A stretch of DNA of 63,107 bases, filler included, from Gonapodya sp. JEL0774 (Eukaryota): NCBI GenBank assembly GCA_027604505.1. It is 7 parts of 7 records of this genome, joined end to end, with 100 filler letters (N's around TTAATTAATTAA, not from the genome) between each part and the next. Parts side by side here need not be neighbours in the genome. Positions count along the whole stretch, not along the records: positions 9,085 to 18,052 come from JADIIX010000427.1; 6 more parts are not named here. One strand, given 5' to 3'. Positions 5,409-46,347 of this stretch are shown piece by piece. Every line of letters begins with the position of its first letter. Positions within the stretch are counted from its first letter, which is position 1. The notes beneath the pieces are model-generated. The model saw nothing but the letters and a program-made list of their open reading frames with translations. It had not been told where the DNA came from and did no database searches. A program made the translations under genes and the position numbers.

Positions 5409-6347
5409 GGCGGAACGTAACAGGATTTCCGGACGGTTGGGAGACGGCGCGAAGTCATTGATTGGGAAGAAATGAATGATGTTCGAGGACCCTGTGTGTC
5501 CCTGCCCGGCTAATCGGCTGCCAAATCAACCGCTATTCAAATCGCCCATCATGTGGCAAAAGGTACGATGTTCACTTTCATCGGTGATGGTCATAGGGTA
5601 TTGCTTTACTCCCGACAAAGAGATGTCTTCAGGTAGAACTTCCGGCTTCGCCGATACAGTTTGATGGAGCTCTCTCGATGACAATCGCGGTGCGTTTATA
5701 ATTATATAATCGATTACGATGTCCTAGTTCGCGAGAGGAAACCCCTTGTATTGCCTATTAATTCGTGGCATGTAATCACTCTACGATAGTGAGTCAGCAG
5801 GTCCGATAAATATCCTCTTCAATAAGTTGACTTGATTGCGGTGCCTGCACGGTACTTGTTTGATTGATGACCGGCAACCGACATCAACGCCCCACTTCAG
5901 CGCATAAAAGTAGCACATAGTACCAATACATACGCATTCCACTGTGTACTTGATCCGGCGCTGAAGGAGGAACTCCACCTGCTGCGTGTGTGCTCTTTAC
6001 GCCAAGCTGCAGATGGTGAGACGTCAACTAAGTATGCAAACTACAGATCACAGATCACCCACCCATTCGAAATAAATCACCGTGAGGTAAATGAAAATGT
6101 ATGGAGTGCCAGATGTCAGTGTAAAATGATCAGGGTCTGATTCTTGCCCCATTGCTTTTAACCATGCGTGCGCGGAAATAAGTGGTTTCATCTTCTGACA
6201 AATGCCCTTTATCTTTAGTGACAGTGGGACAGCACTTTGTGAGTATTCACCCGAGGCGATGCGTTCCTGACTTGCGAACTGAAAGGGAAGGTTTGGCCAC
6301 AGCACGGTTTTGCCGGACATCCTAGAACACCAAGAAATCCAGACAAA

Positions 6348-7313
6348 ATGATTCGAAATCTCCTGAAAACCATGGCCAAAGAAGCATTCAGTCTTGAATC
6401 GCCTTCTTCTGTCACTCGCCCGCCTCTCTCCTGCCCTCTTGAGTCCCTTCCCCTCGAACTTATCCATCGAATCCTCCGCTTCCTTCCACCAACAACCTTC
6501 TTCTCGACCATCCCCCGACTCTCTCGAACAATCCGCCAATGCGCTCTAGGCGCCATTCCTGGATGTCCCGGGAGAGAAGTGGTGATGGATTGCGAGCTCC
6601 GAGTGGTCACCGGTCCGTACCGCGACTTCATTGGGGAGATCAACGTTTTAGACCGATTTTGCGAGGTTCGACCGGCGGGGTGTCCATCTGTTTGGACAGC
6701 ATTGTGGGCATCGTGGTATCTGGACGTCACCATTGACGATCTGGTGGCGGCCGAGACTGAGGTGGAGTTGGAGCAGCTCGTGGGACGACGACTGCGAAGG
6801 GAGGTGGCCCTGAGCGCAACGAAAGCAAAGGCAACAACCCACGCATCGACGGCAAGGATCTTCTCTCGCACCCCCGACGTGCACGTGCTTTCAAGGCCTT
6901 CCCGTCTCACCGCCGACTCTTTGGATGCCCTTCAAGGACTGCGACTGGCGGCGCAAAAGGTCTGTGTTGTGTTCGGCTACGTGCGATACGAGTCCAGAGC
7001 AACGGCTGCAATCGCACTTGTTAGACTAGCACGTTTGATCCGTGCCCGTGGAGTGGTCGAAATGTCCATCATATCGGGATGGCCGATCTTCGTCGCAGCG
7101 GCAGAGATGGCGCAAGTGACGTTTTCTCCCGTCTCTGTGGTTCGTATTCACTCGAAAGGTTGTCCAAACTCTATCGAGGAGTTCTTTCCGTGGATTGTCA
7201 AGATATTCCCAGACGTGACCTTTATGACATGTGGTGACGGTGGAGTGAATCAACGAAAGTTCACCAAATTTTTAGAAGATAAAGAGAATCGAAGACGAGA
7301 CCAACAAACTTAA
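6348..7313 (+). CDS. F-box domain protein
   Basis: Single 321-aa ORF with LESLPLELIHRILRFLPP...IPRLSRTIRQ F-box motif near the N-terminus. Confidence 0.7.
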   Translation: MIRNLLKTMAKEAFSLESPSSVTRPPLSCPLESLPLELIHRILRFLPPTTFFSTIPRLSRTIRQCALGAIPGCPGREVVMDCELRVVTGPYRDFIGEINVLDRFCEVRPAGCPSVWTALWASWYLDVTIDDLVAAETEVELEQLVGRRLRREVALSATKAKATTHASTARIFSRTPDVHVLSRPSRLTADSLDALQGLRLAAQKVCVVFGYVRYESRATAAIALVRLARLIRARGVVEMSIISGWPIFVAAAEMAQVTFSPVSVVRIHSKGCPNSIEEFFPWIVKIFPDVTFMTCGDGGVNQRKFTKFLEDKENRRRDQQT

Positions 7314-9084: not shown

Positions 9085-9988
9085 GTGAATGTGCGAAGGT
9101 GAGCACACTCCTGGAAACTTTGCTGTTTGTCCACCCGTGGCTTACTTAGTACATTAAATTGAAAGGGAATTCAGGTCGCTGCGTCTGAGAATGGATACAC
9201 CCCAGAGCAGGCAGCCAGTATCACATATCGGCACCAAGTGCTTCTGAGCATGCTTTACAAGAAGAACCCAAGCATGGAGGTTCTTCAAGTCTTAGTGAGT
9301 GCAATTCTACCTTTTCTACTACTTCAAGTCGATCTCTTAGCATTGGTTTCTACTCAATTAAAGGTGTTCGTCACATTAGCTTTCGCTATGCTCTTGAGAG
9401 CAGACGAAGTCCTTGCCTTTCGTATGAAAGATATCGACTGCAAGCCAGGAGATAATGCGTTCTACATCAAGCTCAAGCAGAGGAAGAACATCAAGACCGG
9501 TAAACCTGCCACTGAATTCCGTCTCAACTACGGGATAAAACCAGAGGACTTCTGCCCGCATCTCATTCTGTCAAGGTATTTGTATGAGCTTGAAGAGCTT
9601 GGGATTGAGGAAGGTCCTCTATTTCCCCGTATTAACTGGAATCACGTGGAGAAGGGAAGCGAAGCAGTGAGTGACATTGATGTACTTCTCAGTTCTCACG
9701 CTGCCTCTCACGCATTTACCCACTCGAACTCAGGCATATGACGAAATGCTTGCAAAGCTCCGCGATGCCCTATCAGCAATTGGGGTGACAAATGTGAAGG
9801 ATTTTGGCACACACTCCATGCATCAAGGAGGCGTCAAGTTTTTACTTTCTCTGGGAGTACCTCCAACTGAGGTGGCGGAAATTGGAACATGGAAGATTAA
9901 CAGTCCAGCGTTTATGCGGTACGTAACCGAATGGTGTAACAAGGGCAAGCGGAAGGCAGGCGGGGCATTATGTGAATTGGTTCTTTGA
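9085..9988 (+). mobile_element. Intron-containing tyrosine recombinase (Crypton-like), 5'-truncated, probably catalytically degenerate
   Basis: AFAMLLRADEV (box I Arg), KQRKN (Lys), GPLFPRI, phase-0 intron 9667-9733, then FGTHSMHQGG, EIGTW, FMRYV (Tyr). The HxxR Arg is replaced by His. Confidence 0.85.
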
Positions 9989-10020: not shown

Positions 10021-11287
10021 CTACAATGCTTTTGAAGCGCTCGTTACTTGTTTCCCATCTTGTTTGTCCATTGAGCATGGTCCTGGGAGCATATACCACG
10101 ACCTCCGGAGGCACTTCTTGATCTCCCATTCTCTCCCTTGTGACTGCAGGTCTAAGAATTCCTTCAAAGATTCTCGCTGAAGATGTTCCACAGCTTCCCG
10201 ATCCAATTGTTGCAGATGGCGAGCAATGGACCTGCGAAAGTTACTCGCTTTCTTGAATGGCACACCCGTTCTTTTATCCACATCTAAGCCCTTGCTGATG
10301 AGATAGCGAAGTGTCGCTGAAGGTGTTGGAGTCTCATGCAAGCACGTCTGCACCATCATTTCAAATCGTATTCCAGCACGCAACTGAATCAGCTCCGCTT
10401 CATTAAGCTTTCTTGCGATCTCCACTTTGCCTTGTGTCTCATTACGAAGGTTTTCGGTGTTGTAGCACATGACTTCAACTCCCTCTAGGTCAGCTGTCCA
10501 AATCTCGCCACGAGGAGCAATTCTGAAATGAGAATTAAAGTGGCTTGGCGACAAACAAAGGTGCAAGAACGTACTCACCTAGACGTACACTTTCCTGTGT
10601 GCTTTAAATGTTTCAGCGCGTCCTTTGTCCGCATGGAACTGTTTTTACGTTCGTATTCTGCGTAAAAGCTCCGGAAGTAGTATGCCAGCGAGCTAGTACC
10701 CCCATCACGAGACTCAAAAAGAGGGCCATGCGATGCTTCATTTTCATTCGCAGAGAGAAAGTTTAGTCCCGCAGCGGAGAGGGCCGATTTGATGTTCAAG
10801 AGGTCAGGTCCATTTCGTCCGAGTCTATCCAAGCGGTAGCACGCCAGTCCTGCAAGAAATCCCAGCTCCCCGTCTTCATTTGTGACAGTTCTCAGCGCCC
10901 GTTGCCTTGGTTTCGATGCATCTCGCGTGTAACGTGGTGCGAAAGCTCCCACAACACCGAGAATGCTAAGTGCCTTGTGCAATCCTGCCCGTTCATTGTT
11001 TCCTGGACCAGAGAGCACAGCGCCACTCATAACGTCGCTGCAGACTTCAGGGAGGAGGCTGAATCCTCGCCGGTGACATTCATTTCGAATCGAACAAAGC
11101 TGATGGGAGAGAAGTTGATCGAGGTCGCAATTTCGGTTGCAGCCAATGATCAAGCACCCACCTGTGACTCCAAAGAAACATTCAATCCACTATTGTCCTC
11201 CTTTGACAGCCGCAGGTAGGGAATGAAGACGAATTTCCGGCCTGGAACGATTGAATCTCCACCACGACGGCACAAAGCATCGTCCAT
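10021..11287 (-). CDS. Serine recombinase (resolvase catalytic domain plus C-terminal recombinase-like domain), 3 exons, 382 aa
   Basis: Exons 11287-11162, 11099-10579 and 10522-10021 join in frame. Motifs: IPYLRLSKED...SLESQ (catalytic Ser), SDVMSG, ERAGL, YRLDRLGRN, AEYERKNSSMRTKDAL. Confidence 0.88.
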
Positions 11288-11699: not shown

Positions 11700-13311
11700 G
11701 GCCGCGCAGCAGCGCTTCATGGTCGAACATAGTCTAAGAGAACCTCCTGAAGCAGCTGTCAGCCAGTGTCATTCCCTACCAGGATGCAAACTCACCTTTG
11801 GAATCTTATTCAGAACGGCATAGAGTTTGTTCCAATTGGATAGATAGCCAAAGCTTCTCTCAAAGCTATCCTCGCTGTTGGCTTCAACAAACTCGTTGTA
11901 GGCCTCGGCTACGCACTAGTGAAAAGGTGTGGGAAAGGAAAAATAGTTGTACTCAGTTATCTATGTGTTGTTTCCCATTTGTGACCTTGCAAATGAACTT
12001 ACCTTAACTTTTGAGTGGCTCACCCTCACAGGCTTGCGCTCCTCACTAGTTAAGTTGCGCAACGGTGGGAGATTGCGGGTGGGTGATCCATGGTACCACC
12101 AAGTCCAAGCCTCCTTTGCTGACGAAGGAGCTGAGAACCTGATGACGCTCTGTGGGCCGGAAGTGGCGGAATGACTTGATTGGTTTGTTGCTGCCCCCGA
12201 ACTTGAACCATTGGGGACGTGCTCCAGCCCAATGCCTCCTGCAACTGCTTCTGCTGCAGATGCCCCTCCTTCCCCCACACCTGAGGCAGGCTCCACGCGT
12301 GAGGTTGCTGGTGTGGGTACTGCGTGAGCTGCAAGAGCCGTGAGGGCAGCAGTCGCTGCTGATGTGAAAGTGGGTGCGGCAGGGATGAGCATCCGAGCGA
12401 GGTCGGCCAGGGGTTGCAACTGGGCAACAAGGTCGTTGCGCACAAGCTGAACGTAGCTACTTGTAACTTGATTGACGAGGGTAGCTGACGACAGTTGACC
12501 TCCCCAGTTTTCATTGAATTGTGGGACGTGGTGTGGTTGAAAACCTTGGTTCGACATCCCCCATTGCTGCTGTTGGAAAGGAGGACTGCTGTGAGTTGGG
12601 AGGCCCATCGAGGTCTGCGCACACGGTATCTGGGGGGATGGTTGAGGTCCAAAAGATGGTGTACTGGCATGTTGGAACTCCGGTGTCGGAGCTGACATCT
12701 CGGGGGGAACTGCAGAATACGCTGCTTGCCCGCTCGATGGTACTGGCCCAGATTCTGGCTGAATCTGAAGAAGAGTTTCAGGGGTGGCTTGCGATGAACA
12801 GAGGCGTGGAAACACTCACCAACTGCTCCAATGAGTGCGATCCCACAATCCCCATCGGCTGCTCCACCAGCGTGAGAAGCTGGTCGGTATCCAGAGGACG
12901 CAGATACTCGGCAAACTTCCGTCTTGTATTGCTATTGTTACTGCTTGTGGGGAGCCCGATGGCGTTGCGGTGCTACAAGCTGTCCCGAGTGATGATTGCC
13001 CTTCGAATGGGTCTTTTTGGGGCAGTTCTGGATCCAGACGCCACAGCAAATCTCTGACTTTGGCGTGCGGCGAGCTCAGAAGGCTCCGTCGGGACTGTGA
13101 ATCCGGTGATGGGAGGCTGTTGTTGCGGCCGTTGTTGAGTTGTGAGCGGCGATTGGGACGAAAAGACCATTGTCGGGGGAATCGACGCCCCCCAGTTGCT
13201 TGGGAAGGGAATCGGACCAAGATTCGGCGAGAAAAAGACGTTGCTGTTTTGATTGCTGGTAGCGGGAAAGTTGGGAAAGTGGCCCGTGCTTTCCCATCTG
13301 GTAGTCATCAT
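11700..13311 (-). pseudogene. GCR1_C-like DNA-binding domain gene (Crypton-associated), with an in-frame stop
   Basis: FSAPSSAKEAWTWWYHGSPTRNLPPLRNL fits the GCR1_C pattern (P-x-T/S-V/A-x-x-x-W-x-x-W-x-x-G...PPL-x-x-L). A long Q/P/S-rich N-terminal region carries a premature TAG at 12973-12975, and the frame continues to a splice donor. The 3' end is approximate. Confidence 0.55.
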
Positions 13312-14199
13312 ATATTACAAAACACACTCAAAAAAATCCACGAAATCGTCACAAAGCCCCCGTACCGCCAATATCTCCCTCCCATCAATCAATTCGTCGA
13401 TTGCGTGGCCTCCCCGGCCTTCTCGGCGTCTCTATTGTCGTCAAGGGTTGCCACGTCCCTGTTCACAACAGACTCCGCTTCTCTCGCACAAATGGACTTC
13501 TTTGGAGGCCTGACATCGAAAAAAAAGTGTGATTGGTAGACTGAGGTGGGATTTGATGGAAATCGAGTGGATTATGCTGTGTGTGCCAGCAGCATTGGTT
13601 GGGATCCCGAGAACCAGCGGCGCTTTCATCAATTCAAAGAATGCACACCAAATTTATATACGCGATGGACGTTGGATTGATTTACTGAAGTCGTCATGGG
13701 TCTCAGGCTTGTGGAACGTCCACATTTCGATCTCAGATAATAGGCAATTTGAAACTGCACAGAAGACTCTGAAGGACCAAACAACGGCTTGTTTTTCTCA
13801 ATTCGAATGAACTTACTCTGGTGAAGTCAAATGATGCCACTGGGAAGACGAATGAACCGACCTTGCAAACCATAAGAGAAATGATGGACTACAGGCAGGA
13901 ACTGGAGAGCCATTAAAGTGCAACTTCAGAACAGTGTACCTCCATTCTTGTTGCTGGCAGGCCTCCCTTCACAGCTGCCAACAACTGCCCCTTGTGTTCC
14001 CTGTATCCCCCTCCTAGTCTGAGCCAAACACCACCACCTATTTGACTAGTGTAGCAGGGCTGACACTGGCAACAGTCGAAAGTGAAGGAAGAGATGTGGG
14101 GTATGATTGTATATTTGTAACTATCTGTCTATATATAAGAGAATGCCTTGAGGCCACCCTCAGACCCCCAGTGTCCTGTGGGATGTCAATACCACAACA

Positions 14200-15300
14200 C
14201 TAGAAGTCTTGATGAGGTGCATAAGGATTGGACAGATGTGGTGTTGTGTGGGTACCAGGCAGTGGAATATGACCCACAAAACTGGGGACACACTGCAAGG
14301 ATTCACCAAGGTATGGTTTTATGCCCATGTGGGTGTTCAGCCCACTGTGACCCTTACTGTAGTCCTGGTCTTCCTTCACTCACCCACCATGGCCCTGCTC
14401 CTTCAGTCCTTCACCCAACCTGCCGCTATGATCCCAGTCTTGCACCTGTCCCTCTTAATCAGAGCTTAGCCAAGTCAAGAGCTCAAATGGACCCTGCTGT
14501 CACAAGTACAGATAGAACTTATGCTTTTCTGACTGTCAAGAACCAAGCTGCAGAATTGGAATGTTGCACAAGGCGGATATACAGGTGCTCTTTGACACAC
14601 AGCTGAGATAAATGCACTATGACTTTTCAACAGTGGACTTGAGGGACTAGAGTCTCTTCATACTTTAGTGGTATTGGCGACTTGCTCTTTAGAGGCGTTA
14701 GACTTAGGAGATGACAATTTCCTTTAATAAATCTTGATAACCTTATGTAGTACCCCAATCCACCTCTGTTAGACATGTGTGGTGTGTGTTGTGTGAGTAT
14801 ATTTGTACAATAGCCACTGCACACAGATGAGTGCACAAGCTGCCCATTGGTCACTGAGCAGGTTCACAGAGGGAAGCTAGCAAGCAAGGAAACCCTGGCA
14901 GAGCAGAGTGGGGAAAGCTTTCTGTGACCAATCTCACCCTCATTTCCCCCAATTTTTGGTTGCATAGTGTACCCACAACAATGCTTGATTGCAAACACGA
15001 TAGTGGAGCATGTACAGTAGCAAACCACAGCCTCTACTTTCTAAACCTGTAGTTGTGTGATGTCCTGTACCAGACTGGACCTGTAGATGTAGGATGGATG
15101 TATGGTGTCTAGCCACTCATGTTAATGTTGCTGACATTATGACCAAGCCCAGACCGAAGTAGTCCTTTGAGCAACATCGATCATCAATGGGGATGTATTA
15201 CATGGCTACTTGAGATAATGGGAAACTTAACACTGAAGTGTTCTTTTCAGGGGGAGTGTTGAGATATGTTTGACATTTTGGACAGCTATAGCACCACAGG
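14200..15300 (+). mobile_element. Degenerate Ty1/Copia LTR retrotransposon, RT/RNase H end with PPT and 3' LTR start
   Basis: NVADIMTKPRPK*SFEQHRSSMG (Copia RNase H C-terminus, near 15123-15195). AGGGGGAG polypurine tract is followed immediately by TGTTGAG at 15257. The region is CpG-depleted with many stops. Confidence 0.7.
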
Positions 15301-15506
15301 GAGTTGGAATCCGGGAATAATTGATGGAGCAAAGTTACTTGCCATAAAATTTTCTACAAGTTTGCCTTTTGGCAGTTTTTTTCTAGCATTATTGGTTAGT
15401 GATCTACATAGGGAATGTGGATAACTTGGTGGGAACAGTGCTATGGTTGTCGACTAAAGTAGATTAAGCCTTTTCTGCACTACTTGTTAGAATGAGTGAA
15501 TTGTAA

Positions 15507-16056
15507 TCACTCAATTATCATGATGCTGTAATGTTTCCCAACTGGACAAGGTGTGTAGGCTGTTTGGAGCACTTTCCAGTTGTCTTCGGCAGATTTGCAA
15601 GCATCTAACAGCCTGTCAAGGTTGCAGGACACTACTGCAAAGATTGCAACACAGATTATGCAGTTTTTGTGCTCCCATAGTGTTGTTTTGGTGCTGTTGT
15701 CTGCTGGGTATGGCTCACTCCCATGTAAGATCTCCACATCCAATGCCTAAAACTCTACTTCTGAAACCTGTCAGCGTCCTCAAGAACACCCACAGCCTTT
15801 AAAATCCATCAGACGTGATGCAGTTACCGTCAAACATGATTGAGCGTGGGGATGTGGTGTGAAATCAATAGCGAGAGAGGAAATGTCCAATTTCGCCCAA
15901 ATCCACCATCTCTTGTTCTCCAGCTTCTCAAGAATGTCCTGGATGTGTTGGGGTGGGCTCATATTCTGTTGAGCAGTCACGATTTGCTTCTTCAAACACG
16001 CTGTACGGAACAAACTAAATCTAGGTTATCTGACAACTATAGCACTCTCCCCCTGA
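15507..16056 (-). mobile_element. Second degenerate Copia element: LTR end, PBS and gag remnant
   Basis: Minus strand ...CTCAACA|GAATATGAGCCC at 15967/15966-15955 resembles the fungal Copia PBS GGTTATGAGCCC. It is followed by gag-like ILEKLENK..W and LHGSEPYP...W...CKSAEDNWKVLQTAY. Confidence 0.6.
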
Positions 16057-16088
16057 TGGTGAACACATTTTAATTGAGGTATTCTGCT

Positions 16089-16796
16089 TTATTCTTTGAC
16101 ATCAGATCCACTTGTTTGTGAACAGTTCATCTCTAAGGGGTCCAAAAAATGCCACAAGGCAACTCCATAGTTTGGTTCGCAGACTGAATAGTTTGAGGTC
16201 TCATCAAGAAAGCATTCCAAAGTCTCTGTATTCCAGGTCAAAACTTTTGTAAACAGCTGAGTCTGGTTTGCATCCACTTTCTGCTGTATCATTGTTGAAA
16301 TCACCTGCATGATAGTTTCAAAGCTCACACAAATATTTTGCCTCTGTAATTCCACTCCAATTCCCGTTCTTATGTGCTTTTGTGGCCCTGGTGGTGCAAT
16401 CACTTCGGGTTTCAAATGCCGAAAGGTATTCTCCCTAGAGATGAGATAAAGTTCCAATCCTCTCACCTTATCTGCAAAACTTTCTATTTGCTGGAGATTT
16501 GATTCCATTCTGTGACATATCAATTCACTTTGAGAACTGGGTGAGGAGCCAGAAATGAGCAATAATACACTGTGCAGCACAATATTGAGACTTGAATCTG
16601 AAAAGTGGAGAATCCCACATAACTCTGACAACAAAAACGTAGTAGAAAGTGAGTCAGAGCCAATGTACTGCTCTGAGTTTAGCTCAATCAAGATTGTGCC
16701 TTTGATGTCTGAGTCAACTGCTTCAAAAATTGATTCTGCACTTGCACAGCCAATACTGCTTCCAGCACTGTGACTTTGTGAATGCAATTTCTGCAT
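16089..16796 (-). CDS. Unassigned 235-aa ORF within the TE-rich, CpG-depleted block
   Basis: Open frame only; no motif recognised. Confidence 0.25.
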   Translation of the reverse strand: MQKLHSQSHSAGSSIGCASAESIFEAVDSDIKGTILIELNSEQYIGSDSLSTTFLLSELCGILHFSDSSLNIVLHSVLLLISGSSPSSQSELICHRMESNLQQIESFADKVRGLELYLISRENTFRHLKPEVIAPPGPQKHIRTGIGVELQRQNICVSFETIMQVISTMIQQKVDANQTQLFTKVLTWNTETLECFLDETSNYSVCEPNYGVALWHFLDPLEMNCSQTSGSDVKE

Positions 16797-16997
16797 AAAT
16801 ATTAGTTACCTCTCCAAAGGACGTAACAGTCGCAGCATTTTTGGTCTTCAAACGGTTGCAAGACTGACTCTTGGAATGATTGATTAAATGCTCATTCCTG
16901 CATGTCACATTGATTGTACAAAGTTGCGTCTTGGAATATAAGCTTCTCAAATCATTTTTATTACGGTTCCAATTTCCACTCTGCTGGCTTTCGCGCC

Positions 16998-17215: not shown

Positions 17216-18052
17216 CTACTCCATATCACTATCTCCATCTGTAATATCATCTTCGGATTCATAATCCTCCCATTCATCATCTTTTGGACCATCTCCTCTC
17301 TTCCTTGCTTTGGCCTTTTCCTTCCACCAGTCACCCAACAGGACAAGCTTCCTAACATTCTCAGGCTTTAGACTACTTCTCTTCTTTGTTAAAACAGAGG
17401 ATGATGCTGAAAAGAGTCGCTCTGAGGGAACACTTGTTGCAGGGATGCACAGATAATCGCGGGCCATGCGAGCAAGGTCAGGGAGCTGACGGACCTCTGG
17501 GGCATTCTAGATACAAAAGTACGTGTTCCTCATCAGCAGAAAACATTTAACACAGGTGTAGATTGAGGACTTACTCTCCAGAATTCTAAGGGATCAGTTT
17601 TATCACTACTGACTCCAGCATCACGATAAAGAGCAAGTTGGTCCACAGACTCCAAGCGCCTCTGCTTTAGGTATGGCACCCCCTTGCTAGACCATGTAAA
17701 TCTCTTCCTCCCTCCATGGCTTTCTTCCTCTATAGTGGCTGGATCAGGGTTGATGCTCTCATAGTCCCGTTGGTAAATTCCTTTGATGCTCTCCCAAATT
17801 TCATCCGAATAAGCTTCCCAACCAGGGGTTTCGAAAAACTGAAATCTCTCCCTGGGGTCTAGAACTACGATGCAAATGGTATTATGCTGAAACAAGTAAG
17901 AAGCAACAAAGACAACACACTCACATACAGAAAGAGCAAAGATTGGAGACCTGTCAGTTTTGGCGTAATACTTGTGTAAAACCTCCAGACCAGCTGATGC
18001 AGCCAATCTAATCTCAGGCAGATCTGAAGTTTCTGCCCGGTCTTCCAGGAAT
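17216..18052 (-). mobile_element. hAT transposase, C-terminal part (dimerisation domain), with introns; truncated at scaffold edge
   Basis: LHKYY, VLDPR, DPLEFWR|..PDLARMARDYLCIPATSVPSERLFSASSSVLTKKRSSL: classic hAT signature. Confidence 0.92.
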
Positions 18053-36225: not shown

Positions 36226-38882
36226 GAGGCAAGATGGATGAGGGACGAGCGACGGCGGCCACGTACCGGTCCCGTTGTTGGTCCACCCGAGCACCGAGTT
36301 GAAGACGGCCCAGCCGTAGGCAGATGTGTTTTCGGGGTTGCAGCAGTTGAGGCTGTGTTCCCGAGTGTGTGTGTATGTATGTGGGGGGGGACACGATGCG
36401 GACACATGGTGAGTCACTCGTTCCACCTTCCCCGCGCGCCTGCCCCCCCCAAAAAAAAAAAAACAACCACCCCCGCTACCCACTGCCACAAGTTCCCTCC
36501 CACTCTATAACTCCCCGGTCCGTCACCGAGTTCGGCCACGTCGGCGCCGACCAGCTTGTTGTAGTTGTACCGCTCGAAATCGCCCACGGCTTTGGACAAC
36601 AGACCCGCGCCGAGGAGGAGGAGGAGTGCCGTGGAGACAACGAGGAAGAGGGAGAGGTCTAGAGGTGGGAGGAAAGCGGGGGGAAGGGGGGAAGGGGGGA
36701 AGGGGGAAGAGGAAACGATGAGTCCAGGGGGAACCCGGTGCCTCCACCTTTCCGATCGGACCCGCCACGAGCTCCCCGTCCGCCCTTTCCCCCCCCCCTC
36801 CCCCCCCCCCCCCCTGTACTCACTCAACCTCGACGAACTCCTATAAATCGCGTACCCTATCGCGAGTCCCAGCACTGCGCCGACGATGGCGGCGATGGGG
36901 ATGGACGCGGCGGGTTGGCCCAGCGACACGCCGCCCACGAAGACCACGGCTTCGAGACCCTCGCGGAGGACCGTGACCAGGGGGAGGATGAAGAGGGTCA
37001 GGCGGGAGGTGAGGGAGCCTAAGCGGGGTGGGGGGGACGGGAGGGAGGGTGAGTGGGTAGGGCAGGGAAAGGCGATGGCCGCTACAATGATGGGTGCTGG
37101 CGGCTCGCGGCGGTGCGCGGTGTGCGGTGTGTCGCTCTCTTACCCACCTTTTTCGACCTCCTTGCCGTCAGACCCGTCGACCACCTTGGACGCGAAGGCC
37201 CGCTTGAGTTTTATCCGCCACTTGATCTTGGCGCGGTCCATGCGGAGCATGGTGAGGCCCATGAGCCCTGTGCGGCGGGGTGCGGTGGTGATGCGGTGTG
37301 GGAAAATGGAAAAGGGGTAAAGAGGAAAGGGAGGAGCGGAGGGAGGGTGAGAAAGGGCGGACACGTGGTGGTGGGTAAAAGAACCAAGCACCACACGACG
37401 GGACGGCGGACGCGGCACAACAAACAAGGGCCGTGGCAAAAGGTTTCCCAAATGGGATAAGTCGATCGGGTCCATCCCATCCCGCAACATAAACCTCGAG
37501 TGGGCCTCCAGAGTCCGGCGGGACTCCCTTCCCCCCTTGGTCCCTCGTCCCTTCCCCCTCCGTCCCTCGGGTCGGGAGAGCTCGCTCGCTCACTATGACC
37601 GTACCCACATATCAACGCGCTGGCCAGCACCGAGAAGATGCCCTCCCACAGTTCTTCGGAGGCGCCCCAGAGGTTGTTGACCTCGACGTAGAACACGGCG
37701 AGGAAGGCGGCGCCGCTGTTGAGGGGGAGGGGGGGAGGGAAGGGGGTGTCACACAAAGTCCGTGAAAAGTCCAAAAGAGTCCATATGGACCCCCGCACAC
37801 AAAGTCCATTAAAAGTCCAAAGAGTCCATCTGGACCCCCGCACACAAAGTACATGAAAAGTCCAAAGAGTCCAAACGGGTCAAATGGTCCATATGGACCG
37901 CATGGACTGCAAAATTCAATCGCCTTCGACGGACTAGTCCATGAAAAGTCCAATTGGGTCAACTGGTCCATATGGACCGCAAAATTCAATCGCCTCCGAC
38001 GGACTAGTCCATGAAAAGTCCAAAGAGTCGAAATGGGTCATCTGGTCCCGCCGGTCCATATAATCGCCTCCGGGCACACACGTCCATGGAAAGAGCAAAT
38101 GGGTCACATGGTCCAATTGGGTCAACTGGTCCATATGGACCGCCAGGATAAATCGCCTCCGGCGGACTCTGCCCGTCGCTGACGCTTGGGCGAGGGGCCT
38201 CGCTGGCGCACGGCCCTTGAATCCGCTCGGGCGAGGCCGGCCTCCGGTTCGCTTCGCTCACCTCCGGCCGGCTCGCTTTCGCTCGCGCTGGGTCTATACT
38301 CACATACAAAAGGCAATGAGCAAACCGGTCATGGCGCCGGCAAAGATCTGGAACTTGAGTTTCTTGAGGAGCTGGGTGTCTGAGAGCTGAGCGTTCAAGA
38401 GCGACGAGGTCGGGGAAGACTTTTCGACTGCAGTCTTTGTCGTTCCGTCGTCCTCCGAGTCTGCTGCTGCGGAAGTTGTTGCTGGGTCGGGTTGGGGGAG
38501 GTCGCCGCCGGTAGATGGGGCGGGGAGGTCGAGAGCAGGATCGGTATCGGGTTGAGGTAGTATAGGCTGGATTGCCTTTTGGTCAATGACTTTTGCAATG
38601 TCTGTTCCGACGAGCTGTTCAGCGAGTGCGAGGAGAATGGACATGATGATTGCTGCCTCGAGGGTTTCGCGGAAGACGACGAAGAAGACTGAGGATGGGG
38701 AGAGTGGTGATGGTGGGGTGATGGGGGGGGAGTGTGGGAGGAGGGAAAGGGGGAGGGATGGGGGTGAGAGACGGGGGGAGCGGATGGGGGGAGAGAGGAG
38801 GGATGGGATGGGATGAGGGATTGGACAGAAAGAAACAAGAGGGGAGAACAGACTCACTGGGAACAGAGAAGTAGTTTCCCAT
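36226..38882 (-). CDS. FTR1: High-affinity iron permease (3'-truncated)
   Basis: MGNYFSVP|VFFVVFRETLEAAII (RExxE), EELWEGIFS, TMLRMDRAKIKWRIKL, second REGLEA, GDGPGSY, LNCCNPE..GWAVFNSVLGWTN. Confidence 0.95.
37750..38290 (-). repeat. Intronic repeat block in FTR1 (GGTCCATATGGACC palindromes plus a copy of the 68-bp unit)
   Basis: Reverse-complement copy of CGCCCAAGCGTCAGCGACGGGCAGAGTCCGCCGGAGGCGAT near 38152-38192. Repeated aaagtcc(a) and ggtccatatggacc motifs. Confidence 0.8.
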
Positions 38883-39766
38883 TGTTGGAGGTGGGGGGGA
38901 GGGGGGAGTTGAGATGGAGTTGGAGTTGTGGAGTCTTTGTGGATTCTGGCAAGCAGCACAAAGAAGAATCCCCCGCTTAATAGAAAGCGCTGAATTAGAA
39001 AGTGGAAGCAACCGCAGCCCCAAAAAAAGAAGGAGTGGCAGGCCGATCTGGGGAGATCTGCCTCACTGACATGACCCGAGATGAGGAGCCTCCTTGCCAC
39101 TTCCCCCTCGACGGACCCCCGCACCAATCGCCCATCCCCCCACCGGGGCCTCAGCCTGCCTCCTCCCCCTGTTCCGGTCTTGGCACCACCGCCACAGAGT
39201 GGGGTTGAGGGTGCACCCTGCGGCCGCCAAGACCTGCGCCACCCGTCTCTCCCTGTCACCTCCAGTGGCGAAATTCCCGCGATCTGGCGCAGGAGAGGGG
39301 AAAGACCAACCACCGTGTCCACAGCTGCTCCCTAATCTATCTCCTGCCCTGTTTCCTTGGACTCTTGACCGATTGGACTTCTTATTTCCCTCCTCCACCT
39401 GCACACTCGCTTCAATCGATCCTTCCATCAATCCATCAACCCAACCCCCCCTCCTGCGTTTTCCCTCTGTTTCTTCTTGTTCCTCCCCCGCTTCCCTTCC
39501 ATCCTTCCACACTCCTCCTCTCCTCCCCTGCTTGTGTCTCTCATCTCCATCATGAACGTGAGTCCAACACTCCCCCCCCCTCTTTTTCTCTCCTCTCCCC
39601 TCTCCTGTTTCTCATCTCTCCCCTCTTCTGTTTTTCATCGCTCCCCCTCTTCTGTTTTTCATCTCTCCTGCCCCGGGGCGCGGGGGCCCCCCCCCCCCCG
39701 CCCCGCCCGGACCGCCCCCCCACCGCCCGGCCCACACCGGCACAGCGCAACAGAGAAAGAAACCCC

Positions 39767-42700
39767 ANNNNNNNNNNCCTCCGCCCCCCCCCCCCCTCCC
39801 CCAGTCCCTCTCTTCCCTCCTCTTCCACTCCGCTTCTCGCGTCCTCCTCTTCCTCTCTTCTTCCCCCTCCTCCCTCGTCCACGCCGCCAAAAAAGAGATC
39901 TGGTACAACATCCAATACACAAGGGCGAATCCTGACGGTCTTTTCGACAGGAGGGTCATCGGCCTCAATGGCACGTGGCCACCTCCCGTCATTGACATTA
40001 CTCAGAACGATACTTTGATTGTTCATGCGGTGAGTGAGCCCGAGCGTCTCGCCCAAGCGTCAGCGACGGGCAGAGTCCGCCGGAGGCGATTGAACTTTGT
40101 GGTCCATATGACCCAGTCGCNNNNNNNNNNNNNNNNNNNNNNNNNNNNNNNNNNNNNNNNNNNNNNNNNNNNNNNNNNNNNNNNNNNNNNNNNNNTTTGT
40201 GGTCCATATGACCCAGTCGCCCAAGCGTCAGCGACGGGCACAGTCCGCCGGAGGCGATTGAATTTTGTGGTCCATATGACCCAGTCGCCCAAGCGTCAGC
40301 GACGGGCACAGTCCGCCGGAGGCGATTGAATTTTGTGGTCCATATGACCCAGTCGCCCAAGCGTCCGAGACGGGCAGAGTGTGCCGGAGGCGATTGAACT
40401 TTGCGGTCCATATGGGCCTGTGAGGCCAATATGGACCAAGTTGACCCGTTTGCTTGTTCATGGACTAGTCTTGTTGGCTTGGTTGGTTGGTTGCTTCGTT
40501 TGGCTCACAAAGTGTAACACCACCCCACCACCCACCACCCACGCCCCTCCCCCCCCGCCCTACACAGACCAACCTCCTCGACCTGCCCTCTGGCGTCCAC
40601 CACCACGGCATGTTCTTCAACAGGTCCTCGTGGTACGACGGTGCCACCAGCGTCACGCAGTGGTGAGTCAGTGGGGGCCAGCGTGAGCGCCACGCCCAAG
40701 CGTCAGCGACGGGCAGAGTCCGCCGGAGGCGATCGAAATTTGCGGTCCATATCGGCCGGTAAGGCCCATATGGACCATATGGACTTTTCATGGACGTTGC
40801 CGGAGGCGATTGAACGTTGGGGTCCATATATGGGGCAGGACCCTATCGACCCTATGGACTTTTCTCACGGGTGTAATTTTTTATTCCTGCCTTTCTTTCG
40901 TTCTCCACTCTGACCCTCTCTCTCCCCTCTTTACCCACCCCAGCGGCATCCCCACCAACGCCACCTACACCTACCTGGTCGACCCCACCACGTCGGGGCA
41001 AACCGGCACCTACTGGTACCACGGACACACGCGTGGTCAATACGTGGACGGGTTCCGCGCTCCCTTGATCATCCACAGGAACGGGGAAAAGACCAGAAAG
41101 GGAGCGGAATACGACGACGAGTACGTGCTGGCGCTGTTTGATTGGTACCACGACGAACACAAGGTGCTGTTGGGGCAGTTCTTGAGCGAGTCCAATCCAG
41201 GTAGGTTCAAGGGGCCGGAGGGGGGGTGGGGGGTACGCTAGATTGGTGGATGACATGTGATTGGTGTTTTTTAAAAATGGGTAAACATTGACTTGGGTTC
41301 AACATATGCCAGTAAGCGTATGCGATAAAGAGTAACCAAANNNNNNNNNNNNNNNNNNNNNNNNNNNNNNNNNNNNNNNNNNNNNNNNNNNNNNNNNNNN
41401 NCCCCCTCCCCTTCTCCGACCCCCCTCAGGCGGCGCCGAACCCGTCCCCAAATCCGCCGTGGCTGTCGTCGCCCACAACGGCACTTACCTCGCCGGTTTC
41501 TCCGAGAACTCCACGATCCCGTTCGTGCCGGGAAAGACGTACAGGTTGAGGATCATCAACATGTCGGCGTTGGGTGAGTTTGGGTTGCCCTGCCCGTGGG
41601 GGTGGGGGGGGGGGGGGAGGCAAGATTGATGGCTCACCTGTGTGTTGTGTTTTTTCCCCCTGGGTTCTCCTTTTCTTGGGTTCCACCTCTGACTTTGGGC
41701 GTATCCGCTACCGTGGACCCACATCTTTCCGGTCTTGCGTGATCGGATTCAGCAATGTTCTCCGTGTGGATCGACGGACACAACATCACCGTGATCGAAG
41801 GTACGTGGGCACGTGGGCATGTGGGATACTTCCCTTCTTTGTATGCTCATCCCCCCATCACATTCTCTGTCCTTTCCTTCGGACTCCCCCGCCAACCCCA
41901 CCATTCCCCCCACACGTCTAGTCGACGGCACCGACGTGGAACCATACCCGATCGACATGGTCACCCTTTCGGTGGCTCAGCGGATCTCGGTGCTGGTCAC
42001 GGCCAAGAACGAGACCGACAGTAACTGGTTGGTGCATATGAATATGGTGCGTTGAGGGGGGAGAGGGGGGGGGGGGGATGGGGAAGGGGGAATGGAAGAT
42101 TTGACACCGATTTTGATTTTGTGGTGACAGAGTCCCGACATGTTCGATTTCGTCCCGGACGATTTGCAACTGAGTGAGTACAACCATGGTTGTACCACAC
42201 CTCTCTCGTAAAAAAAAACAACTCACACACCTCTGCCTCCCCACTTCCCCTCCCTAGACATCACCACCACCATCCTCTACAACACCTCCTTCCCCACCGC
42301 CGACGGCACCACGGTCGACGAGTACCTCGAGTTCCCCGACGCCGACCTTGTCCCCATCGACGTGGAAGGCGAGGCCACCGCGGACGTGTCCATCACTCTG
42401 GCGGCCACCTTTGACACGGCCGACGACGGGACCAACCGGGCCTTTTTCAACGACATCACCTACGTGACCCCCCTCACGCCGACGCTGTTGACGGCCAGTA
42501 CCATGGGCAACTTGTCAAGTGATGTGAGGGTGTATGGGCAGACGAACACCTATGTGTTGGAGCTGGGGCAGAATATTGAGCTGTGAGTTGGTGGTGGTGG
42601 GGGAAGGGGCTCGGGTTGGAGCGTAGGCTCACACACCTATCACACACCTCGAATCACTCCTCGCCTCCTCCACCCCCCGCAGCGTCGTCGTCAACCTCGA

Positions 42701-45133: not shown

Positions 45134-46347
45134 NNNNNNNNNNNNNNNNNNNNNNNNNNNNNNNNNNNNNNNNNNNNTTAATTAATTAANNNNNNNNNNN
45201 NNNNNNNNNNNNNNNNNNNNNNNNNNNNNNNNNACAAATGTCCATGGATCAGGTAAGTTACAAAATTAATTTTCCGTCGTTTTTCTTTTGAATTCACGCA
45301 TCTTCCTTGTGAGCTACGTGCCCGTCATGCTGGGATGTCCCGCTACGCTCCCTGGGGTTTTCGCTTTGAGGCTACAATGCCAGATGGGACAATAAGGCGA
45401 TCACACAATTCTTCGAGGCTCCATGGACGTCTTGGTGATCTACGTCTGGTTCCAGATCGTGTGGAGCAGGAGCAGATGGATTGGTTGGTTTGTTTGGTGA
45501 TGCGAGCCATTAGCCGAACCTGGTTTGGTAAGTTTTGGTGGTGGATGAGGGGGAGAAATAATGAATTATTTAGAAAATATTTTTGGCAGGTTTTACTTGT
45601 TACGAAGATATCACCCCACGAGTCCTCCGCTGCTGGCTTGAAGTTCTCGGGCTTGGTACCACAACTCGCAACCCCACAGGTGAAACAATGCCAATGCTAT
45701 TTTATGGGAATCTGAAGAGACAGCTCCTGGCATATGTTACTTACTGTGAGAGGAATGATCGTGAGGAATTTCAGAGGCGGTTGGCCCATGTGATGACTTG
45801 GAACAACATGATCAATGACGGGGTTTTCAACGGAGAGAAAGATTAAAGTCTAGAATTTGTGGAAATCAGAATCAATAGCTAGAATAGTTTTGAAGTTTTG
45901 TGACCGTCTGTGAATATGAGATACAGTTTTGAAAGTAATTGTCGAACGTGCGAAATTGATCGCGCAGCAACTCATGATGGCAAGTAGTGAGTGGCCCGTC
46001 ACTCTCCCAAAGAGACTACACTACTTCTAGTAGCGAAACAAATTCTGTATGAGATATGTTGTTGTAATCATTCTGTTGCATTACAAAGAACCGAAACGAA
46101 ACGTAGCAACTGGAACTCTACATCACAAAGTTGGTTGTGATGGAGCCGCAACACTGCGGCGTTTTTTGCTACCCATGACGCAAACTGATAGTATGTGGTG
46201 CTCCAGGCGTTCTTTGGTGCTTTGGGGCCGTATTTTATACATCCATAGAGAGCTGCACGCACAAGTGAGAGACAAGCTCCGTGAAATAGAACCAGACGGA
46301 ATCAAATGTTCGCTCACTTGAAAATAAAACATTCAAATGTATTACTG

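Follow-up and report, generated by a model that had tools for sequence, protein, structure and literature searches.

The DNA analyzed here (the window; 63,107 nt in all) consists of seven separate contigs of ∼9 kb each, joined by N-spacers, from the assembly of Gonapodya sp. JEL0774; Gonapodya is an early-diverging zoosporic fungus. On the contig at 9085-18052 (8968 nt) lies a serine recombinase gene, read from the minus strand and predicted to consist of three exons (11287-11162, 11099-10579, and 10522-10021; 126 + 521 + 502 = 1149 nt) that encode 382 amino acids and a stop codon. Exon 1 (11162..11287) supplies 42 codons: the start codon, the first strand, the nucleophile motif Y-x-R-x-S28, and the start of helix A. 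Predicted intron 1 (11100..11161; 62 nt, GTGGGT...CATCAG, GT-AG, phase 0) separates it from exon 2 (10579..11099), which holds the remaining catalytic domain with the D-R-x-x-R motif, the E-helix, and an insertion of ∼30 amino acids common to paralog P0002. Predicted intron 2 (10523..10578; 56 nt, GTGAGT...TTTCAG, phase 2) falls inside the post-E-helix motif G..S..(S/A)PxG. Exon 3 (10021..10522) encodes a beta-hairpin and a helical DNA-binding-like domain that resembles a short recombinase domain, followed by a helical tail and the stop codon.

Splice model of the recombinase gene

Both introns had been proposed in an earlier note on this DNA. We scored open-frame donor and acceptor choices with a profile built from seven relatives, excluding the window protein itself. 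The proposed intron 1 ranked first of 1109 splice choices (51.8 bits; mean 23), ahead of a runner-up using the identical acceptor (46.4 bits), and the proposed intron 2 ranked first of 24 open-frame choices (140.0 versus 130.4 bits). Both still ranked first when paralog P0002 was removed from the profile, and both exon junctions were gap-free in the alignment to this paralog. On the strength of the profile ranking and the gap-free junctions, splicing of these predicted introns is therefore strongly inferred; their coordinates and the uninterrupted 382-codon frame of the earlier note hold. Exon 1 aligned to P0002 and to the rest of the family and contributes ∼20 bits of the family-profile score; a narrow clostridial profile gave this exon no score, and the family profile was used instead. 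A possible third, in-frame intron of 108 nt (10957-10850) was rejected because paralog P0002 keeps a similar amino acid insertion. The gene has a CpG observed/expected ratio (o/e) of 0.91, indicating no CpG depletion, and a GC3 of 0.49, inside the range of the other long open reading frames (ORFs) in the window.

The NCBI model of the locus, annotated as hypothetical protein HDU93_007011 [Gonapodya sp. JEL0774] (P0001; 565 amino acids), shares the acceptor at 11100 and the identical intron 2 with our model but omits exon 1, replacing this catalytic exon with part of the upstream gene. We rejected the fusion, which scored 138.0 bits against 161.5 bits for the three-exon model on the family profile; the upstream gene also has its own last exon and stop codon. 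Word-based searches recovered no locus but this one, whether the query was exon 2 (1 of 6295 candidates) or exons 2-3 (1 of 6416), and an NCBI model without the catalytic exon illustrates how such genes escape notice. The gene is eukaryotic and intron-split rather than a bacterial contaminant, as the earlier note had argued. It is a real, intact eukaryotic variant of a known enzyme class, and we hold it very probable that the locus is a genuine spliced serine recombinase gene outside the IS607 group.

Domain architecture of the predicted protein

The resolvase catalytic set is complete at the positions read previously: Y24-x-R26-x-S28, D64..SG, R79, D133-R134-x-x-R137, and the E-helix residues E190..ER193..R199. 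Given predicted intron 1, the Y-x-R-x-S motif in exon 1 is in frame with the D-R-x-x-R motif and the E-helix. Exon 2 alone matched PF00239, the resolvase family suggested by the earlier note (E = 4e-12; 46.9 bits, cut-off 23.3), and 7 of 7 relatives exceeded the same cut-off (P0002-P0006 and P0008; P0014 from a precomputed domain). P0001 matched phrog_125 and phrog_95 over the exon 2 region, and the best PDB sequence match was a nonsignificant one to a Gin-type invertase. The fold was read on relative P0008, whose AlphaFold model (pLDDT 66.9) was built from an alignment that included exons 2-3 of the window gene. Foldseek matched this model to serine integrases and resolvases (best E = 2e-7), and VIA aligned it to a resolvase domain (Z 16.0, rmsd 6.5, 145 aligned), to Bxb1 over model residues 27-277 (Z 14.7), and to small resolvases and invertases (Z 11-13). 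The structure predicted for this relative is a resolvase fold.

A confident model of the C-terminal half of the window protein (pLDDT 84.5) had as its top VIA row the integrase recombinase domain of 9dxd (Z 5.9, rmsd 4.5, 96 aligned), with further rows for Bxb1 (Z 5.4, 110 aligned), phiC31 (Z 5.0, 114 aligned), and 4kis (Z 4.3, 100 aligned). These integrase rows (Z 4.3-5.9) cover the entire model but tie in Z with unrelated helix-turn-helix (HTH) regulators, and we took VIA Z values below 8 as not decisive. Foldseek against PDB and BFVD returned nothing at E ≤ 0.001, and no fewer than three of the seven best viral rows were named phage or giant-virus recombinases (E = 0.06-0.18). In a profile comparison, HHalign matched the family C-terminal half to eight short recombinases at 80% (E = 1.3e-5), with the qualification that these eight were chosen for their P-[YF]-G motif, which favors a match; the alignment spans 72 columns, well beyond the motif. 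All controls remained below 0.5% (large-recombinase domains, small-resolvase tails, other mid-length tails, and IS607 N termini), including 0.2% against 15 large-recombinase domains and 0.2% against 12 small-resolvase tails.

Searches for the accessory domains of the other classes were negative. Pfam gave no sequence match to the recombinase domain PF07508 (the Atlas lead for such a domain stood at 0.85), no match to the zinc ribbon and coiled coil (PF13408), and none to the short C-terminal HTH (PF02796); the protein has no paired C-x-x-C motifs and stops at residue 382. Since both the zinc ribbon and the coiled coil are missing, the window protein is not a full large serine recombinase. As for the likeness to the recombinase domain of the large enzymes pointed out in the earlier note, the C-terminal half does resemble such a domain, in its short type, with no PF07508 match at the sequence level. 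That note's statement that the IS607 N-terminal HTH is missing agrees with our results: only 23 residues precede Y24, and no Pfam HTH family matched exon 1 or the scanned relatives. The IS607 model NF033518 (cut-off 110 bits) matched neither P0001 nor exon 1 and gave the relatives 45 bits at most. Likewise, a profile of 10 TnpBs run against 1617 six-frame segments of the window reached a best E of 1.5, consistent with the earlier remark that no TnpB/Fanzor lies nearby; the contig ends 0.9 kb downstream of the gene.

From its motifs and profile matches, the protein is best read as closest in architecture to the class of short recombinases of 220-245 amino acids known from phages, bacteria, and virophages (for example L131, L175, L180, and a Bodo saltans virus protein in BFVD), with a C-terminal half matching the short recombinase-type domain of that class. 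It shares with them a leading catalytic domain, a long E-helix, a P-[YF]-G hairpin, a helical domain ending in a T-R-x-G-like motif, and the lack of a zinc ribbon. It differs in its introns, in insertions in both domains, in a family-specific G-P motif, in an extra C-terminal helical tail, and in its nuclear fungal location, and identity is ∼30% at best. The large serine recombinases (Bxb1, phiC31, the PDB 9dxd enzyme, TnpX, and CcrA/B) have the same catalytic fold and a similar recombinase-domain-like region, and they are the top structural matches and the next-best profile matches (E = 5e-17); however, they run to 450-600 amino acids rather than 382 and carry the domains listed above as lacking, and we saw no att sites or prophage context here. 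Small resolvases and invertases (gamma-delta, Tn3, Gin, and Sin) are alike in the catalytic domain, whereas the window protein lacks their HTH and has a much larger C-terminal part.

Two eukaryote-linked groups also bear comparison. Like IS607EU (TnpA plus Fanzor2) and the IS607-family genes of Saccharomyces (Lachancea) kluyveri, the window gene encodes a serine recombinase of prokaryotic descent that is present in several copies in a eukaryotic genome (PMC13565253, PMC3627910, PMC2715888). Those proteins, however, have an N-terminal DNA-binding domain and usually a TnpB/Fanzor2 partner, while the window protein has a C-terminal domain, no TnpB, and a place outside the sampled IS607 clade. PMC2715888 counts six S. 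kluyveri genes of the IS607 family and reports an N-terminal DNA-binding domain for them; Fanzor2-linked TnpA is treated in PMC3627910 and PMC10711439. The earlier note named IS607/Fanzor-linked TnpA as the eukaryotic cases, and this proved too narrow: poxvirus F16 is also a protein of the serine recombinase type (PMC4304020), and virophage contigs and giant viruses encode such enzymes. F16 (PF04708) resembles the window gene in its serine recombinase descent and eukaryotic setting, and the virophage relatives match PF04708 weakly. In contrast, F16 is described as an inactivated serine recombinase (PMC4304020); in the window gene, the catalytic set is intact and PF04708 gives no match.

A divergent family and its phylogenetic position

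A HMMER search over 1.84 billion representatives (E ≤ 0.001) returned nine matches: besides the locus, there were six relatives and two rows that were dropped from the family, namely, P0007 (a repetitive p53 model) and P0009 (an ordinary large recombinase, retained as a reference row). The relatives are P0002 from the same organism (375 amino acids, labeled partial, 32% identical to the window protein over 342 columns), P0004 and P0005 from Chytridium lagenaria, P0003 from JGI, and P0006 and P0008 from Logan; P0014, also from Logan, was added by profile search. Among the best 120 of 149 profile matches (7192 candidates), the other 117 were recombinases of the prokaryote type, none scoring better than E = 5e-17. 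Only two fungi were named hosts among the nine matches, a patchy spread for a search of this size. With a partial copy elsewhere in the window, the family comprises eight proteins plus that copy, at 20-37% identity. Members share the Y-x-R-x-S motif, the arginines of D-R-x-x-R (P0002 has N for D), E-x-E-R...R-T-K, P-x-G, and the family-specific G-P motif. Retention of these motifs at such low identity points to selection on catalysis.

The partial copy (45234..45845; plus strand) holds the C-terminal half only, being cut by the start of contig 6. It was detected by the family profile in a six-frame scan of the window (E = 3e-9) and scored 40.6 bits once spliced. At 42% identity to P0003 and P0004 over 50-60 amino acids, it is nearer to these proteins than to the window gene. 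Its two predicted introns (∼45253-45313 and ∼45528-45607, the second narrowly the best of 27 choices) differ in position from those of the window gene, and it has none at the position of the latter's intron 2. The different positions suggest separate intron gains or losses and, hence, long residence in a splicing host. The gene of the earlier note is thus not alone: its family has at least three divergent copies in the Gonapodya assembly (the window gene, P0002, and the 45234 copy) and two in Chytridium lagenaria. Among the protein representatives and in the window, the closest paralog was the one at 32%, and no near-identical second copy was seen; for this reason, recent mobility is not indicated. 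Pattern scans for family loci in IMG/VR, JGI metagenomes, and GTDB genomes found none, and introns and divergence can defeat such scans.

Catalytic-domain trees of 83 and 99 rows, with references dereplicated from 339 sequences, support the monophyly of the family as judged from this domain: the eight proteins formed one clade in both (99/94 and 99/98, respectively). The IS607 rows (n = 8, all from one bacterial phylum, with no eukaryotic TnpAs sampled) formed a separate clade at 100/100 in both trees, and IS607 had the lowest class median on the family profile (29 versus 52-62 bits). However, a sister relationship between the family and IS607 was not rejected by an approximately unbiased (AU) test on either the quick tree (P = 0.82) or the careful one (P = 0.34). 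The phylogeny called for in the earlier note therefore places the family outside the eight bacterial IS607 rows but leaves a sister position to them standing, and exclusion of the family from IS607 rests mainly on architecture.

The donor is less clear. In the 83-row tree, the sister of the family was L180 (97/80), a recombinase on a virophage-like contig carrying Atg8, an ATPase, and a methylase. Support for this sister was gone in the 99-row tree, where the family fell into an unresolved group of enzymes bearing a recombinase domain, whose other members were the virophage clade, the short enzymes of phages, and large recombinases. The virophage contigs encode serine recombinases of 240-350 amino acids that share the post-E-helix P-F-G motif with the family, and relatives of L180 (L243, L245, L249, and L250) encode a Sputnik-type capsid (E = 6e-34). 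On the family profile, phage short recombinases scored 83 bits and virophage ones 76 bits. As a separate observation, the virophage-like IMG/VR recombinases (L180:4998-5723, L243-L245, L249, and L250) formed their own clade (100/99), and some of these contigs carry an Atg8 gene (PF02991, E = 4e-18); a literature search turned up no description of virophage serine recombinases.

Genomic surroundings and possible role

The neighborhood of the gene is rich in mobile-element remains. Convergent to it and downstream lies a tyrosine-recombinase-like gene (9085..9988; plus strand) that is cut by the contig start, has three predicted introns (9099-9174, 9295-9363, and 9667-9733), and matches PF00589 weakly (E = 0.045); the stop codons of the two genes are 32 nt apart. 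No solved relative of this tyrosine recombinase was found by sequence. Its H-x-x-R motif reads H-S-M-H, a change consistent with a CpG transition, and it is likely inactivated; its CpG o/e is 0.70. It resembles a second such gene (E = 1e-6) at the end of contig 5 (44762..45133; minus strand), a C-terminal part cut by the contig end, with a PF00589 match at E = 0.04 and an intact H-S-F-R...G-R-W...Y set, which we take to be DIRS/Ngaro-like. The pairing of tyrosine and serine recombinases was not repeated in the window: no tyrosine recombinase follows the 45234 copy, and no serine recombinase follows the tyrosine recombinase of contig 5. Upstream is a spliced gene (11716..13309; minus strand) with an uncertain start and one in-frame stop near 12975. 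It matched no Pfam family at E ≤ 1; its end may resemble the GCR1_C domains of Cryptons. Farther along the contig are a strongly CpG-depleted block (13985-16800; o/e 0.1-0.3, and 0.19 for 14-16.8 kb, versus ∼0.9 on other contigs) and the C-terminal fragment of a hAT transposase with its hAT dimerization domain (17216..18052; minus strand; PF05699, E = 8e-16). The depletion suggests methylation-driven decay of old repeats in Gonapodya.

Weighing these data, we are evenly poised on the explanation that we rank highest: a fungal nuclear gene, interrupted by two predicted spliceosomal introns, whose product, probably an active short-type serine recombinase, would serve a low-copy mobile element of zoosporic fungi as integrase/excisionase or resolvase. 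A role in a mobile element is the likeliest because there are several divergent copies, a patchy spread, and a neighborhood rich in mobile elements, including the tyrosine recombinase, the hAT fragment, and the CpG-depleted block. Serine recombinases attack the DNA backbone with a serine, assemble as tetramers via their E-helices, make staggered double-strand cuts, and exchange strands by subunit rotation, all without ATP or host repair. By the chemistry of the superfamily, Ser28 would attack the backbone to form phosphoserine links; four subunits would pair two sites through their E-helices, cut both strands with a stagger, and swap strands by rotation, with the C-terminal domain presumably reading the half-sites. 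The element would then excise and integrate via a circle, needing neither inverted repeats nor target duplication. Zinc ribbon and coiled coil make phage integrases directional, and since the window protein has neither, its reaction is likely reversible between like sites. The ancestor may have been a short recombinase of the phage or virophage type, with the introns gained later. Several results speak against this explanation: no target site was found and the repeat scans brought out no terminal repeats or att-like sites, the sequences searched held no near-identical second copy, the pairing with a tyrosine recombinase is not repeated in the window, the fold match of the C-terminal half is middling, and the two trees disagree on the support for a virophage donor.

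The gene might instead belong to a domesticated host family, an ancient captured recombinase that the fungus uses outside any mobile unit for programmed inversion or excision or for the resolution of circular DNA. The intact frame, the undepleted CpG, and the GC3 like that of other long window ORFs would fit such a history, as would the deep divergence of the paralogs and the repeat scans, which found no terminal repeats, att-like sites, or convincing element ends. We nevertheless consider it fairly unlikely: the spread is patchy, and the genomes carry several divergent copies apiece, lying on short contigs amid transposon debris. Still less probable, in our judgment, is a proviral origin: the recombinase would have served a virophage, Polinton-like virus, or giant virus that became endogenous, would have acquired its introns once integrated, and would today be a relic or accessory gene of the decaying provirus. 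The P-F-G recombinases of capsid-bearing virophage contigs and the sister position of L180 in the smaller tree speak for this origin, together with weak structure matches to Marseillevirus, Bodo saltans virus, and Yasminevirus proteins (E = 0.04-0.18) and an Atlas cluster of Nucleocytoviricota at 0.91. Recombinases of Polinton-like viruses are covered in PMC12721341, according to which tyrosine recombinases are usual in them. However, four virophage queries (capsid, penton, ATPase, and protease) found no counterpart in the window (best E = 2.2, with just 9 kb of the gene's own contig to search), every neighbor gene is spliced, and the IMG/VR pattern scans found no family member; moreover, the sister link was lost with more rows, and phage short recombinases score as high as the virophage ones.

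We assign little probability to a composite, Crypton-like element in which the serine enzyme would be a second recombinase, resolving circles or dimers beside the tyrosine recombinase and the upstream gene. The compact convergent layout of three genes, all spliced, and the close spacing of the stop codons suggest such a unit, but the pairing is absent both at the 45234 copy and at the window's other tyrosine recombinase, and the partner gene has lost its catalytic arginine and is more CpG-depleted than the serine recombinase (0.70 versus 0.91). Very improbable, finally, is a highly derived IS607-type TnpA stripped of its N-terminal HTH and its Fanzor partner. The AU test keeps the sister position, and eukaryotic IS607 TnpAs lie outside our sample; even so, no HTH precedes the catalytic domain, the C-terminal domain is foreign to IS607 TnpA, and the missing NF033518 match, the lowest class score on the family profile, the separate IS607 clade, and the lack of TnpB in the window all point away from it.

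A broader reading, which we put forward tentatively, judging it possible but short of probable, is that the family marks a second, undescribed class of mobile DNA in eukaryotes that depends on a serine recombinase, distinct from IS607, derived from short phage or virophage recombinases, with introns gained independently in chytrid-grade fungi, and still active on nuclear chromatin. A 2026 review names IS607EU as the sole eukaryotic DNA transposon known to rely on a serine recombinase for its movement (PMC13565253). The present family is apparently undescribed, appearing nowhere in the full-text literature searched; most subscription journals and Repbase lie outside that search. Catalytically complete by its motifs, intron-bearing, and non-IS607, the family is present in at least two genera of early-diverging fungi and would represent a second route of this enzyme class into nuclear genomes. 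Should the element prove mobile, the classification of eukaryotic transposons would gain a new class, and if the second-class reading is true, the enzymes would be site-specific integrases native to eukaryotes. For inserting large pieces of DNA, serine recombinases are leading tools, and a compact version of 330-380 amino acids with an evolutionary history on eukaryotic chromatin would merit testing for that use.

Two further features were seen on other contigs of the window. On contig 5, the interval 37700-40850 is densely packed with repeats of 60-150 nt, both direct and inverted, and the GC skew flips there from +0.31 to -0.42. At 6243-7313 (plus strand), an intronless ORF of 356 codons has a weak F-box match (E = 0.006).
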